Source of the DNA: a virus
Lineage: Duplodnaviria > Heunggongvirae > Uroviricota > Caudoviricetes
Virus record (IMG/VR): IMGVR_UViG_646311924_000020
DNA: 43,730 bases
Direction: 5' to 3' (one strand)
In this document: positions 27,875 through 41,437 of the stretch, in pieces
How positions within the stretch are numbered: the first letter of the stretch is position 1
Layout of the letters: each line of letters opens with the position of its first letter
The notes under the pieces: model-generated
Told to the model about the DNA's origin: nothing
The model's input: only the letters and a program-made list of their open reading frames with translations
The model's database searches: none
Program-made: the position numbers and the translations under genes

Positions 27875-27950
27875 TGGTGCTGGTTAACGGACTTGAACCG
27901 CTACCCATTCGCTTACAAGGCGACTGCTCTACCATTGGAGCTAAACCAGC
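27875..27950 (-). tRNA. tRNA-Thr (anticodon UGU)
   Basis: 76 nt cloverleaf folded by hand: acceptor GCTGGTT/AACCAGC, D-arm GCTC/GAGC, anticodon loop CTTGTAA, T-arm with TTCAAGT loop, discriminator A, encoded CCA. Confidence 0.75.
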
Positions 27951-27955
27951 ATATT

Positions 27956-28030
27956 TGGCGGGACAGCGTGGACTCGAACCACGATAAGAAGGTTAACAGC
28001 CTTCCGTAATGACCTTTATACGACTGACCC
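27956..28030 (-). tRNA. tRNA-Asn-like (anticodon GUU), non-canonical, possibly pseudo-tRNA
   Basis: 75 nt: anticodon stem GAAGG/CCTTC with loop CTGTTAA, T-arm CGTGG-TTCGAGT-CCACG, encoded CCA; but acceptor stem has a T-T mismatch and the D-stem is only 3 bp. Confidence 0.55.
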
Positions 28031-32806: not shown

Positions 32807-33076
32807 TCATTGCTTCATCTCCCTTTCCATTTCATCAATGTCAACGTCATCAGGAAGATGGGAGCAATACGCCGCTATACCATGATGATTTATCTCATAC
32901 CCTTTGAACGTTACCATCTGGCGCGTAATCTCAACTTCGTTCAGGAATCCGCCATCGCATAACTGCCTGGCTATTTTCGATTTGGTCTGGATTATTGGTA
33001 GTGCCTGTTCTTTCAAAGCGTATGATATTTGCGCATCCCATGCCTTTTCGAGAATGGCTAATTGTTTTTTATTCAT
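32807..33076 (-). CDS. hypothetical protein (89 aa)
   Basis: Operon-strand ORF immediately downstream of helicase gene; no family recognised. Confidence 0.5.
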   Translation of the reverse strand: MNKKQLAILEKAWDAQISYALKEQALPIIQTKSKIARQLCDGGFLNEVEITRQMVTFKGYEINHHGIAAYCSHLPDDVDIDEMEREMKQ

Positions 33077-34512
33077 CAGAATCCTCCTTTCTTCTTGGAC
33101 TGCGGTTCCTCGCGTTCACGTCGGCGCATTTCAGCAGACTGTTGGTCTGTGTCATAAATAGCGCCATTTGCCTGAATGCAATACACCGTGCCGGTATTGC
33201 CATGACGATTGAGACGAAGGATTAGTTCGGTTTCACCAGGTGGAACACTGTCATCAAAAGCACCTTCACGATGGATCCCCACCCAATAATCGCAATCCTG
33301 TTCAATCTGCCCTGTATCTCGTGAGTCACTTGGTAATGGGCGTTTATTGGTTCGGCTTTCCAGTGCGCGGTTAAGTTGCGTCAGAAGCACAACAACGCAA
33401 TCAAGCTCTTTGGCAAGGTTCTTCAGTCCTTTGGTGATCATGCCGTAAGCAAGGTCGTTGCGATCGGCCTTCTCAGCGGTCATTAGTGTCAGGTAATCGA
33501 CCAGAATCATGCCAACACATCCTTTTTCTCGCTTGATTCGACGGCTTTCGCTGACGATTTGAGCCAGAGATAATCCCGGCGTGTCGTCGATGTAAAGCAT
33601 GTCGATTTCACTCAAGCGATTGGCTGTTTCGATCGCCCTGTTGAAGTCACCATCGTAATCACCCTGATAGCCGTCATCGGCGTCATTTGTCGCCGGAAGG
33701 TAAAAAATATTCGGGTTAACACCAGACTTCTGCCCTACCAGTTTTTCCAGTATCTGATCACCTGGCATTTCAAGGCTGAACATCAGAGCGGGCTTTTTCT
33801 CATGCACTGCGCAATTGATTGCCATCTGGCTGTATAGCGTCGTTTTCCCCATCTTAGGGCGAGCGCCAATGACAAACAGAGAGCCTTTCACCAGACCTTT
33901 CGGTGACAGCATCCTGTCCAGCGATGGGATCCCTGTGCTCATTCCCCGTTGTTCGCCTGATGGGTCAAATCGCTTCTCAAGGTCGCTAACCCAGTCTTCC
34001 ATGACCTCGCCAAATGAGCGAAGGCCGCGACGCGATCCGGTTTTTGCATGGTCTGTCAGTTGCGTGAAAATCGCCTGAATAGCTTCGTACTTCTGCGTCG
34101 CAGTCATTCCGTTGCGGGAATAGAGCAATTCCGTCGCTTCAGTCATGCGGTTGATGGCGTAGCGTTCCATTGCGGTTTCACGAACCTGCATTGCATAGGC
34201 AACGATGTTTGCTGCGCTTGGCGTGTTCTTTGCGATCTCAGCGATATAAGCAAAACCGCCAACAGACACCGTTAACGATTTACGCTCCAGTTCATCGAAA
34301 AGCGTCAGGCCATCTACTGGCTTTTGCTCCCGGTGCATTCTGGTTATTTCTTCGAAAAGGATTTTGTGTGGTCGGCTGTAAAATGAATCAGGCTTCAGCA
34401 TCGCCAGAACTTTCTGGACGCGCTCACTGCTGTCATCATCCAGAAGCAATCCACCAATCACCGCCTGCTCTGCCTCGATGCTATGGGGCGGCGCATAAAA
34501 ATTATCGGTCAT
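33076..34512 (-). CDS. replicative DNA helicase (DnaB family, P22 gp12-like)
   Basis: Walker A GARPKMGKTT, DnaB-type N-terminal domain (SIEAEQAVIGGLLLD) and RecA-like C-terminal domain; start placed at second ATG ([10 protein letters not shown]). Confidence 0.9.
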   Translation of the reverse strand: MTDNFYAPPHSIEAEQAVIGGLLLDDDSSERVQKVLAMLKPDSFYSRPHKILFEEITRMHREQKPVDGLTLFDELERKSLTVSVGGFAYIAEIAKNTPSAANIVAYAMQVRETAMERYAINRMTEATELLYSRNGMTATQKYEAIQAIFTQLTDHAKTGSRRGLRSFGEVMEDWVSDLEKRFDPSGEQRGMSTGIPSLDRMLSPKGLVKGSLFVIGARPKMGKTTLYSQMAINCAVHEKKPALMFSLEMPGDQILEKLVGQKSGVNPNIFYLPATNDADDGYQGDYDGDFNRAIETANRLSEIDMLYIDDTPGLSLAQIVSESRRIKREKGCVGMILVDYLTLMTAEKADRNDLAYGMITKGLKNLAKELDCVVVLLTQLNRALESRTNKRPLPSDSRDTGQIEQDCDYWVGIHREGAFDDSVPPGETELILRLNRHGNTGTVYCIQANGAIYDTDQQSAEMRRREREEPQSKKKGGF

Positions 34513-35401
34513 CGTGTTCACCCTCACGAACTTTCAGGTAGGTATTATCGTTAAGCAGGAAATCAAATCCCTTTTTGTGCCAGATAGTTCCGCGTTGATG
34601 GTTTGGACGCTCTTCGAACATCCATCGGCAATTTTCGCCTACGTAGCTCAAATAATTTCTCCAGTCCTGCATCGTGAACCCATGCCCGTCAAGCTGGCGT
34701 GTTATCACTCCGGCTTTGCGCCAGAACGTTCGGATCTGGTTTTTACGCTTGTCATTCAGTGCGCGGATTCTTGGCGCTTCAGGAAGGATTTCGTGGTAAG
34801 CATCGACAACATCCTGACAGCTGACGGAAGGTTTTTTCTTGTCAGACTTTTTGTCTGCTGTGGCACTCTCTAATACGTCAGTATTAGAGATAATATTATT
34901 ATATTCTTTATCTGTGGTAATTTGCTGGTAATCTGCTGGTACAGTATTGCTTGCATGCATTGGTATTGCTGGCTTTGAGGTGGTAATTTGCTGGTAATCT
35001 GCTGGTACAAAATTTGACTGATAATCGTCATATTTCTCTACCGAGAAAACTGAGGATTTACCGTGTGAAACCCAGTCAATCATGCCGAGTTTTTTGAACT
35101 TTCTAAGCAGGTACTGAACGCGATCTGGTTTGAGTCCTGTTTCAAACGCCAGAGAGTTTCTACCGCCAAGTAGCTTCCCTCTGCCTACCAGAATTTCTCC
35201 TGCGTCAGTCATTACATACTCAGGCGTATGCTTTGCTTTGAGGATTAAGTGAACCCACAGATGCGCTGCTTCTGCGTCCTTGTAAAACGGCACATCCATA
35301 ATTTTACGGTGCAGCAAGGCATACCCCTTACCGCTGCTTTGATGCGGTTGTTGTAGCCTTCTGGCCTCTCTGGCTTCGGCTAGATTAGATATGTTACTCA
35401 T
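34502..35401 (-). CDS. replication initiation protein (O-like, origin-binding)
   Basis: 299 aa directly upstream of and overlapping the helicase gene; contains an internal DNA iteron array and AT-rich block, as lambda O contains its own ori. Confidence 0.65.
34865..35010. repeat. candidate replication origin: iterons plus AT-rich block inside the O-like gene
   Basis: Two identical 29 bp direct repeats TGGTAATTTGCTGGTAATCTGCTGGTACA (34915-34943 and 34981-35009), each made of CTGCTGGTA-type sub-repeats, with a degenerate copy between, adjacent to AT-rich 34871-34910. Confidence 0.6.
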
Positions 35402-35572: not shown

Positions 35573-35869
35573 TCAGAATTGCATATCAATTTGCTTAAAA
35601 TCCTCGGTGGCAGCCGGGGATTTTTTCTTTGTGATTTCATCAAGCGCATACTTAAAAGCCCTGCTAATCGGACTGATGTCTGATGCCATTCCGAAAGCAC
35701 ACAAGACCGAAGCAATAAATCTCCAGTCCGTTCTGCTTATCTTCGATTCATGACAGCCAATCATCTTTGCCAGACCGCGCTGGGTAAGCGTTGACAGGTT
35801 GATGAGTAAATCTGTTTCTGCGCGATCAACGTCGCGCTGTGATAGTTTGCTGTAACTTGTTTGTTCCAT
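35573..35869 (-). CDS. cII: CII-like transcriptional activator
   Basis: 98 aa; C-terminal [18 protein letters not shown] parallels lambda CII KKRPAATERSEQIQMEF; HTH-like segment ([15 protein letters not shown]); position downstream of cro. Confidence 0.75.
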
Positions 35870-35954: not shown

Positions 35955-36000
35955 TCGCTTTTCAGCGACGTAGGACGAATGTCCGTTGTTACAAAGAGCG
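35955..36000 (-). promoter_or_regulatory. candidate nutR (boxA plus boxB)
   Basis: Minus strand just after cro: CGCUCUUUGUAACAACG (boxA-like), a small hairpin GGAC-AUUC-GUCC, then UCGC-UGAAAA-GCGA (GAAAA loop as in lambda boxB). Nearly the same arrangement recurs upstream of N. Confidence 0.5.
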
Positions 36001-36010
36001 GATCCGCTTA

Positions 36011-36226
36011 TTAAGCGGCTTTGTGTTCCGGCGGGAACACGTCATCAAGACTGACTTTTGCGCCTAACTTGTTTAGGCACGCAACAAGAGCACGGCATGT
36101 TTTAAGGTCTGGGAAGCGACGACCAGATTCCCAATGTCCGATAGCTCCCTGTGTGCATCCAACTGCCTTAGCAAGTGTTGTTTGAGAGATATTCAGTGAC
36201 TCTCGATATTTTCGTAGGTTGCTCAT
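36011..36226 (-). CDS. cro: Cro-like repressor (HTH_XRE)
   Basis: 71 aa from ATG 36226 (MSNLRKYRESLNISQTTLAKAVGCTQGAIGHWESGRR...), GGAGGG RBS, divergent from cI. Confidence 0.8.
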   Translation of the reverse strand: MSNLRKYRESLNISQTTLAKAVGCTQGAIGHWESGRRFPDLKTCRALVACLNKLGAKVSLDDVFPPEHKAA

Positions 36227-36252
36227 ATGCCCTCCATAGTAACCATAACGCA

Positions 36253-36281
36253 ATAATACGATATGTACTTTTAGAATGCAA
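36253..36281 (-). promoter_or_regulatory. candidate pR promoter (-35 TTGCAT, 17 bp spacer, -10 TATTAT)
   Basis: On minus strand upstream of cro; spacer and -10 overlap the 15-mer AGTACATATCGTATT, an operator-like motif also present at pL. Confidence 0.45.
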
Positions 36282-36343
36282 ACAAAAAATACATCTTGTG
36301 CATGGATGATTTTAGTACAGAGCGTAATAATAAGGGTATGAAA

Positions 36344-36997
36344 ATGAAATGGTATGAACTGGCTAGATCCAGAATGAAAGAGCTCGGCATAACTCAAGAG
36401 AAGTTAGCCGAAGAGCTTGGTATGACGCAGGGTGGAATTGGTCACTGGTTGCGCGGATCTCGTCATCCATCTCTTGACGAGATTGGTGTGGTGTTTAAAT
36501 ACCTTGGTATTGATAACGTCTCATTCAACCACGACGGTACATTTTCACCTGTTGGCGAATACTCATCTGCCCCCGTTAAAAAACAATATGAGTACCCTGT
36601 TTTTTCTCATGTTCAGGCCGGTATGTTCTCGCCTGAGCTTAGAACCTTTACCAAAGGTGATGCGGAGAGATGGGTCAGCACAACCAAAAAAGCCAGTGAT
36701 TGTGCGTTTTGGCTTGAAGTTGAAGGTAATTCCATGACCGCGCCAACAGGATCCAAGCCAAGCTTTCCTGACGGGATGTTAATTCTCGTTGACCCTGAGC
36801 AGGCTGTTGAGCCAGGTGATTTCTGCATAGCCAGACTTGGTGGTGACGAGTTTACCTTCAAGAAACTGATCAGGGATAGCGGTCAGGTGTTCCTACAACC
36901 ACTAAACCCGCAATATCCAATGATTCCATGCAATGATAGCTGTTCCGTAGTAGGGAAAGTTATCGCCAGCCAGTGGCCTGAAGAGACATTTAGTTAA
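36344..36997 (+). CDS. cI: CI-type prophage repressor (N-terminal HTH, C-terminal S24 LexA-like domain)
   Basis: HTH segment ([23 protein letters not shown]) and S24 motifs (GNSMTAP...FKKL); start chosen at ATG 36344 (7 nt after AAGGG); ORF-track start 36296 is a TTG. Confidence 0.85.
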
Positions 36998-37029
36998 CAG
37001 CCTCACCACTCTAAAACACACAACAATAA

Positions 37030-37057
37030 CCCGACCTTAGCGTCGGGTTTTCTTTTT
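37030..37057 (+). terminator. intrinsic terminator after cI
   Basis: Hairpin CCCGAC-CTTAGC-GTCGGG followed by TTTTCTTTTT, 33 nt after the cI stop. Confidence 0.6.
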
Positions 37058-37123
37058 CCAAAATATAAACCCATTAAATACAAAGCGTTATAAAAAACTA
37101 AACCATATTTAGAACATTTTGTA

Positions 37124-37152
37124 TTGACTCAGTAAAGTACACATCGTACTAT
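37124..37152 (+). promoter_or_regulatory. candidate pL promoter (-35 TTGACT, 17 bp spacer, -10 TACTAT) with overlapping operator-like 15-mer
   Basis: Spacer and -10 contain AGTACACATCGTACT (37136-37150), an inverted-repeat-containing 15-mer near-identical to the one at pR. Confidence 0.5.
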
Positions 37153-37198: not shown

Positions 37199-37244
37199 GC
37201 TCTTTAAACAACGTCGAACACTCGACTACGTGGCTGAAAAGCCA
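37199..37244 (+). promoter_or_regulatory. candidate nutL (boxA plus boxB)
   Basis: GCTCTTTAAACAACG (boxA-like), small hairpin GTCGA-ACAC-TCGAC, then TGGC-TGAAAA-GCCA (GAAAA loop); located between pL and N. Confidence 0.5.
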
Positions 37245-37342: not shown

Positions 37343-37615
37343 ATGTCCAGAAAAACAGAATTTAAAGGAACCGCAGCTTCTCGCCGTAGAGCTCGTCGTG
37401 CAAATCTGCAAAGTCAGGAGGCGATCAGCTCCGACAAGCTACACAGGCCAACCCCTTCACGAGTGGTCTTGCAATGCAAGCGCAAACCAGCAATGAGAGC
37501 AGAAGTGATAACTCTGACAACGTTGACCAGAAAATATGAAGGTTCAACTTGTCTTCCGAACGTAGCCATTTACGCGGCAGGCTACCGGAAATCAAAACAA
37601 CTGACGGCGAGATGA
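37343..37615 (+). CDS. N: N-type antitermination protein (arginine-rich motif)
   Basis: 90 aa from ATG 37343 (GGGAGG RBS): MSRKTEFKGTAASRRRARRANLQSQEA...; first gene after pL and the nut-like site. Confidence 0.7.
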   Translation: MSRKTEFKGTAASRRRARRANLQSQEAISSDKLHRPTPSRVVLQCKRKPAMRAEVITLTTLTRKYEGSTCLPNVAIYAAGYRKSKQLTAR

Positions 37616-40882: not shown

Positions 40883-41437
40883 ATGAACAAGATTGACTAT
40901 CAGGCACTGCGTGCCAAGGCAGAAAAAGCAACGTGTGGTGAGTGGTCGCTCGAATATGGAGAGGAGAGATTTGATGCTGGTGATGCGCTAATTCATCGTG
41001 AAGTTGTTGGATATCTTCCCATTTGCAGAATTGAAGGAGCGCATCCTGAAAGCGGTTTCGATGAAGATTTCCAGATGGAACAGCAGGCCAATGCTGAATT
41101 TATTGCTGCCTTTAATCCAAAGGTTGCTTTGGCACTGCTGGATGAACGGGAAAGAAACCAGCAATACATCAAACGCCGCGACCAGGAGAACGAGGATATT
41201 GCGCTAACGGTAGGGAAGCTGCGCGTTGAGCTTGAAGCAGAAAAACAGCGGGCAAAAGTTCTATTTATGGAAAATGCTCGGCTTAAGTCAGGCATAGCCG
41301 GTCTGATACACCTCGGTATTCGATATGCAGATGTTGAGGTCATGAAAATTGCTGGAGATGCCCAGCTTTCTACCCCATGCACTGACAGCATCATAAACAG
41401 CATTGCAACAGGCATTCGCATCAAAGGAGGTGAGTAA
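40883..41437 (+). CDS. hypothetical coiled-coil protein, possibly Ead/Ea22-like
   Basis: 184 aa with central coiled-coil (RRDQENEDIALTVGKLRVELEAEKQRAKVLFMENARLK); resembles Ead/Ea22-like prophage proteins by memory only. Confidence 0.45.
   Translation: MNKIDYQALRAKAEKATCGEWSLEYGEERFDAGDALIHREVVGYLPICRIEGAHPESGFDEDFQMEQQANAEFIAAFNPKVALALLDERERNQQYIKRRDQENEDIALTVGKLRVELEAEKQRAKVLFMENARLKSGIAGLIHLGIRYADVEVMKIAGDAQLSTPCTDSIINSIATGIRIKGGE

Follow-up and report, generated by a model that had tools for sequence, protein, structure and literature searches.

The window, by which we mean the whole 43,730-nt (43.7-kb) stretch of viral DNA analyzed here, carries six related 17-bp sites in its immunity region that very probably constitute the predicted tripartite OR and OL operators of a lysis/lysogeny switch built like that of lambda and belonging to the VT2-Sakai (Sp5) immunity type. 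These six operators are already known, having been predicted and annotated in VT2-Sakai-type phages, and they bring no new biology; the result for the window is a clean annotation of pL, pR, pRM, and six putative operators. These sites would set the immunity specificity of a repressor type that is very common among E. coli prophages. The Stx2a phage of O157:H7 Sakai, in which toxin release is controlled by repressor occupancy, belongs to this type.

The portion of the window between 33 and 38 kb is the lambdoid early region of an E. coli prophage. Encoded on the minus strand are the DnaB-like P (33076–34527), O (34502–35401), cII (35573–35869; Phage_CII, E = 5e-32), and the 71-aa Cro (36011–36226; Pfam HTH_3, E = 4.2e-12). 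The plus strand encodes the 217-aa CI (36344–36997, with an alternative ATG at 36338), which pairs an N-terminal Pfam HTH_3 domain with a C-terminal Peptidase_S24 domain (8.7e-29), and the N antiterminator, the first gene of the pL operon (37343–37615; Pfam N_peptide, E = 8e-32). The cI and cro genes are divergent and flank a 117-bp control region. Because cro lies on the minus strand and both cI and N on the plus strand, transcription from pR must run leftward out of the 117-bp gap separating cro and cI, and by the same layout that from pL must run rightward out of the cI–N gap, both as the initial annotation had assumed. Within the latter gap, a terminator scan places a bidirectional terminator-like hairpin at 37028–37049, between the end of cI and OL3.

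A promoter scan recovers sigma-70-type promoters in both gaps. The pL promoter (37124–37152, plus strand), which drives N, consists of a −35 hexamer TTGACT (37124–37129), a 17-bp spacer, and a −10 hexamer TACTAT (37147–37152). The pR promoter (36253–36282, minus strand), which drives cro, cII, O, and P, consists of TTGCAT (36281–36276), a 17-bp spacer, and TATTAT (36258–36253), and was returned by the scan in the equivalent form TTTGCA-18-TATTAT (36282–36253, minus strand). The initial annotation of this DNA had proposed that pL and pR share a near-identical 19-mer, and this is confirmed: AAAGTACACATCGTACTAT is found at 37134–37152 on the plus strand and AAAGTACATATCGTATTAT at 36253–36271 on the minus strand, each with no mismatch to the degenerate pattern. 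The pR copy had been placed at plus 36251–36269, coordinates that are 2 bp too low. As had also been claimed, each 19-mer lies over the spacer and −10 of a good promoter (TTGACT-17-TACTAT and TTGCAT-17-TATTAT), and both contain the dyad AGTAC-N5-GTAC(T). In its strict form, AGTAC-N5-GTACT, the dyad is perfect at pL (37136–37150) and has a single mismatch at pR (36255–36269).

We read a third promoter, the inferred pRM (36303–36331, plus strand), from the sequence as a weak −35 hexamer TGGATG (36303–36308) and a −10 hexamer AATAAT (36326–36331). It has no match in the consensus promoter scan, as expected for an activator-dependent promoter, and transcription from it would begin at about the A of the ATG at 36338.

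Around these promoters lie two sets of sites, listed here without strand. The OR region comprises three related, partly two-fold symmetric sites of ≈17 bp between cI and cro (36254–36329), and the OL region holds a second set of the same sites (37076–37151) that overlaps pL upstream of N. OR1 (TAATACGATATGTACTT, 36254–36270; AAGTACATATCGTATTA on the pR strand) covers the spacer and −10 of pR. OR2 (AAATACATCTTGTGCAT, 36287–36303) is situated upstream of the pR −35 and directly adjoins the −35 of the inferred pRM, with its center at about −43 relative to the inferred pRM start, and OR3 (TAGTACAGAGCGTAATA, 36313–36329) overlaps the inferred pRM −10. On the other side of cI, OL1 (AAGTACACATCGTACTA, 37135–37151) covers the pL spacer and five of the six bases of the −10, OL2 (TAGAACATTTTGTATTG, 37110–37126) reaches three bases into the pL −35, and OL3 (AAATACAAAGCGTTATA, 37076–37092) lies farther upstream. 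The center-to-center spacings are 33 bp for OR1–OR2, 26 bp for OR2–OR3, 25 bp for OL1–OL2, and 34 bp for OL2–OL3.

All six sites fit the 17-bp consensus wARTAC-N5-GTAYTw, OR1 and OL1 most strongly. Comparison of the 12 half-sites reveals that A5 and C6 are invariant, whereas A2 is present in 11 and T4 in nine, and the conserved positions form a two-fold symmetric half-site pattern unlike that of a promoter. OR2 is a weak match, its right half reading GTGCAT. The weaker copies reported earlier at 37077–37091 and 36314–36328 correspond to OL3 and OR3; the latter has one mismatch to the strict dyad, and the former (AATACAAAGCGTTAT) has three yet fits the broader 17-bp consensus. The previous count of two copies per region identified four members of the set but fell short of the three per region found here, having missed OR2 and OL2, and the 15-mer that it took as the unit gives way to a 17-mer as the functional unit, to which all six sites conform.

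We then asked how often such sites arise by chance. Matches to the 19-mer are expected ≈0.03 times in the window, and two exact ones are present. By contrast, the strict AGTAC-N5-GTACT pattern with up to two mismatches is not enriched across the window (nine found versus 9.1 expected). Because this short dyad pattern is too loose, we replaced it with a symmetrized 17-bp matrix built solely from OR1 and OL1 and scanned both strands of the 43.7-kb window. OL1 has the top score in the window and OR1 the second best, followed by OR3, OL3, and OL2 in third, fourth, and fifth place; OR2, the weakest site, ranks eighth, and sixth with a matrix built from all six sites. At a threshold of at least 12.5 bits there are five matches, every one of them in the two control regions, compared with a mean of 0.63 in dinucleotide-shuffled windows.

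These rankings bear on the possibility that only OR1 and OL1 are real operators and that the four weaker matches are a chance AT-rich motif in AT-rich DNA. The intergenic control regions are indeed only 24 to 30% GC, OR2 reaches just 8.6 bits with the matrix made from OR1 and OL1, and OL3 departs from the strict dyad at the three positions mentioned above. Since the control regions are AT-rich, we also shuffled them locally; such composition-matched dinucleotide shuffles produced two extra sites at the observed scores in 2 of 5000 trials for OR and in 0 of 5000 for OL. Moreover, in all four weaker sites the half-sites stand out as conserved against variable flanking DNA, and these sites recur both in a divergent relative and in the VT2-Sakai-type OR despite visibly diverged intergenic DNA, as detailed below. 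We consider a chance origin of the weaker sites very unlikely. An alternative OR2 at a lambda-like distance of ≈24 bp from OR1 (around 36278–36294) was also considered and rejected, as nothing scores there; the conserved bases of the OR1–OR2 gap in that vicinity are the TTG of the pR −35.

To compare the sites across related prophages, as the initial annotation had suggested, we scanned for the CI N-terminal domain and obtained four close genomic relatives and 80 viral contigs, to which annotated phage records were added. This set of ≈85 loci reduces to 31 distinct OR and 42 distinct OL sequences. The loci compared encode the same or a near-identical CI N-terminal domain, and in all 80 viral-contig loci this domain is 100% identical. 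Because the viral loci share an identical domain, they are usable for footprinting, though not for covariation between recognition helix and half-site. A genomic scan for more distant relatives suited to covariation returned, beyond the four close ones, only generic Firmicutes helix-turn-helix proteins of 30 to 45% identity.

Across the 31 OR and 42 OL variants, 63 of the 72 half-site columns are invariant, compared with 50 of 110 other intergenic columns. The contrast is sharpest at core positions 2, 4, 5, and 6 and their mirrors (45 of 48 invariant), with the site centers at 15 of 30. The column contrast gives a Fisher p of ≈1e-9, a value that is not a true probability and overstates significance because the relatives are not independent, but the difference between the column classes is still plain. 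The variable stretches are the DNA between the sites, the 5-bp site centers, the DNA downstream of the −10, and the A-tract upstream of the pR −35. Taking the sites individually, the core positions of OR1 are invariant among the 31 OR variants, as are the blocks AAAAATACA and GTGCATGG that flank OR2; OR3 is nearly invariant, and the inferred pRM region is invariant. In the 42 OL variants, the half-sites of OL1 and OL3 are conserved, and so are both pL hexamers.

The same data speak to a different account of the shared 19-mer, namely that it reflects common ancestry or gene conversion of the pL and pR core promoters and has no role in repression. Such an origin would agree with the coincidence of the shared block with the promoter spacer and −10 and with the likeness of the two −10 hexamers, TACTAT and TATTAT. 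The dyad recurs, however, at four positions that are not same-strand promoter cores, and what is conserved is a pair of two-fold symmetric half-sites rather than a promoter-like pattern. Promoter spacers are normally free to vary, yet the half-site that falls within the spacer is invariant in the relatives. A shared promoter ancestry alone is thus extremely improbable as an explanation, and we retain the reading of the 19-mers as the cores of two operators.

Insertions and deletions among the relatives are confined to the long gaps, which range from 32 to 35 bp for OR1–OR2 and from 32 to 34 bp for OL2–OL3. The short gaps, OR2–OR3 and OL1–OL2, contain no indels in any of the 31 OR or 42 OL variants. 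These short gaps are also the pRM and pL spacers, which could explain the constancy, so the absence of indels alone does not show cooperative pairing. The poly-A run at 36283–36289, upstream of the pR −35, is polymorphic in length, and the OR region of the relatives spans 116 to 119 bp. This A-tract polymorphism, whether real or a homopolymer assembly error, shifts the OR1–OR2 and pR–pRM distances by at most 3 bp.

The most divergent relative is L010, an Enterobacteriaceae genome in which the N-terminal domain of CI shares 84% identity with that of the window. All three OR sites are retained there, at spacings of 34 and 26 bp, and so are OL2 and OL1, which are located 2.2 kb downstream of cI behind inserted genes. 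In 2B8, phi458, VT2-Sakai, and L010, the interval between cI and OL contains 1 to 2 kb of extra genes, including those for an NYN-domain protein and a 301-aa ORF, at the position occupied by rexAB in lambda; the window is without this insert.

A further line of evidence comes from the P22-like phages vB_EcoP-683R2, Dewey, Louie, and 720R6, which share 98% homology with the window solely from the cro stop codon (36011) to ≈37171. The homology ends ≈20 bp past the pL −10, and N differs beyond that point. Because the homology is limited to this interval, the operators travel together with cI and cro as a single immunity cassette, of which 36011 and ≈37171 are, judging from the alignments, the mosaic boundaries. 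The earlier proposal of repressor-operator architecture at both early promoters is therefore supported by site statistics, conservation, and co-inheritance with the repressor, although the set of sites on which it was based was incomplete. With a 1.36-kb query that comprises cro, cI, and pL, we found matches in 1370 of 5426 complete E. coli genomes, some of which may reflect the lambda-like part of cI; the query is covered over at least 80% of its length in only 265 genomes. Several O111:H8 genomes carry this 1.36-kb region with 100% identity.

Co-inheritance also bears on which protein occupies the sites. Cro is 100% identical between the window and VT2-Sakai (72 of 72 aligned positions, stop included), a degree of conservation that would suit binding by a regulator other than CI, for example Cro alone, a host factor, or another prophage factor. 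On the other hand, the recognition helix TQG(G/A)IGHW is common to CI and Cro, the sites travel with the cI-cro cassette in the P22-like phages, and the architecture matches control of pRM by CI. We give next to no weight to a regulator that excludes CI and continue to regard CI as the predicted ligand of the sites. The two recognition helices are nearly alike (TQGAIGHW in Cro and TQGGIGHW in CI), and a near-identical recognition helix is what usually lets two proteins share an operator set. From this likeness, Cro is expected at the six sites besides CI. Cro also has a clear homolog in PDB entry 28tn, an 82-aa 'lambda repressor-like protein' (E = 4.5e-17), so a structural template for Cro exists.

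The closest described counterparts of the window's immunity region are found in the VT2-Sakai-type phages. The cI-cro region is ≈93% identical in Stx1 converting phage (AP005153), Stx2 converting phage II, 2851, Nil2, and the VT2-Sakai-type PA phages, and the CI N-terminal domain is near-identical to the VT2-Sakai type, with few differing residues, all outside the helix-turn-helix. In VT2-Sakai (Sp5), Stx2 converting phage II, and Stx1 converting phage (AP005153/AP005154), six 17-bp sites are homologously placed and share their half-sites with those of the window, and pR, pRM, and pL are positioned alike. The DNA between the sites visibly differs, as do the site centers and outermost bases; OR1, for example, is TAATACGATATGTACTT in the window and AAATACAATATGTACTT in the VT2-Sakai type. 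The two also differ in wider organization. OL directly follows cI in the window, with OL1 ≈790 bp from the cI start, whereas in the VT2-Sakai-type phages ≈1.5 kb of additional genes separates OL from cI. The N gene of the window prophage is also a different one, and the prophage's late region is P22-like.

The annotation of AP005153 in GenBank (Sato et al.) includes 17-bp 'putative operator' features that map exactly, one to one, onto OR1–3 and OL1–3, with the homologs of OL1, OL2, and OL3 at 41228–41244, 41253–41269, and 41286–41302, respectively. The same record annotates a putative major rightward promoter, equivalent to pR, and a 'putative maintenance promoter for CI', equivalent to pRM. 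Fattah et al. 2000 is cited in PMC4587872 for OR1–3 and OL1–3 of the Sakai phage. Table S1 of PMC10742460 lists OR1–3 and OL1–3 of VT2-Sakai, the same sites as in the window, and that study used EMSA to measure all six VT2-Sakai sites against lambda CI, obtaining apparent Kd values of 3.7 to 6.4 μM. Our literature search found no EMSA, footprint, or other binding experiment with the cognate CI or Cro, and a search with the operator sequences themselves gave no matches. In the VT2-Sakai record NC_000902, codon 29 of cI is an in-frame TAG that interrupts the recognition helix (MT*GG), as a result of which the RefSeq record splits the gene into 'cI' and 'c1 repressor protein fragment'.

Comparison with lambda itself reveals a shared plan built on a different half-site. 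Like lambda, the window has divergent cI and cro genes and three 17-bp pseudo-symmetric sites at each of OR and OL, with the strongest site over the −10 and spacer of pR and of pL and with OR3 over the pRM core; OR2 sits at about −43 relative to pRM here and at about −42 in lambda. The window CI and lambda CI are 97% identical in the C-terminal domain (103 of 106 residues) and match at 30 of 35 residues in the linker and cleavage region, and at 20 of 76 in the N-terminal domain, which is without lambda's N-terminal arm. Within the helix-turn-helix, Gln44 is retained, as are acidic residues at the positions of Glu34 and Asp38, and four positions are changed: Ser45 to Gly, Ala49 to His, Asn52 to Arg, and Asn55 to Arg. 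The half-site is wARTAC in the window versus TATCAC in lambda, with A2, A5, and C6 in common, and the window matrix finds no match in the lambda operators. Co-crystal work on lambda established that A2 is read by Gln44 and the position-4 base pair by Ser45. From this we infer only that keeping Gln44 and changing Ser45 would fit the shared A2 and the C-to-T difference at position 4.

By analogy with lambda, the proposed switch would operate as follows, with binding, order of occupancy, cooperativity, and pRM activation all being steps that we infer. Dimers of the prophage CI would bind the 17-bp wARTAC-N5-GTAYTw sites through the helix-turn-helix N-terminal domain, while the lambda-like C-terminal domain would carry oligomerization and RecA-stimulated self-cleavage. 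Occupation of OL1 and OL2 would occlude pL and occupation of OR1 would occlude pR, which would keep N and the cro-cII-O-P genes silent in the lysogen. OR2, located ≈43 bp upstream of the inferred pRM start, is at the position from which lambda CI activates pRM and might serve likewise here. OR3, lying on the pRM −10, would allow autorepression of cI at high CI levels or repression by bound Cro, and during lytic growth Cro would use the same six sites.

The spacings between sites differ from those in lambda, where they are 24 bp for OR1–OR2 (33 bp in the window), 23 bp for OR2–OR3 (26 bp), 24 bp for OL1–OL2 (25 bp), and 20 bp for OL2–OL3 (34 bp). At 33 bp rather than 24 bp from OR1, OR2 of the window falls upstream of the pR −35, whereas that of lambda lies over it. 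The short, lambda-like spacings are OR2–OR3 and OL1–OL2, and OR1–OR2 and OL2–OL3 are long; because of these differences, lambda-style pairwise cooperativity cannot simply be assumed. One might speculate that the switch is wired differently from that of lambda despite an almost identical cooperativity domain, an idea that we regard as doubtful. If pairing did favor OR2–OR3 over OR1–OR2, pRM would be autorepressed at low CI, and the level of repressor would be kept low. Such a low level, if it occurs, would give 'hair-trigger' induction as described for other Stx-phage repressors (PMC5977221).

Two other Stx phages, 933W and BAA2326, have operators that the Koudelka laboratory studied biochemically. 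They resemble the system in the window in that lambdoid CI-type repressors control pR, pRM, and pL via multiple sites, and the immunity type of the window occurs in Stx phages as they do. We considered their operators as a possible match to the window sites and rejected them, as the published sequences are unrelated. Additional differences are that 933W has only two OL sites, that the BAA2326 sites have weak symmetry, and that cognate binding has been measured for those phages.

Several other features were noted in the window, the nut sites being read from the sequence. Downstream of pL, a candidate nutL (37199–37244, plus strand) comprises a boxA, GCTCTTTAA, at 37199–37207 and a boxB hairpin, TGGCTGAAAAGCCA, at 37231–37244, with an extra hairpin at 37213–37226 between them. 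A candidate nutR on the minus strand (35955–36000) has the same layout, with its boxA at plus 35992–36000 and its boxB, TCGCTGAAAAGCGA, at plus 35955–35968. At the 5′ end of cII and facing cI, a TTGC-N6-TTGT element (TTGCTGTAACTTGT, 35847–35860, plus strand) is, by analogy with lambda, a candidate CII-binding repeat of pRE. Farther away, two phage-borne tRNA genes, tRNA-Thr(TGT) and tRNA-Asn(GTT), are located at 27875–28030 on the minus strand, upstream of the late genes.
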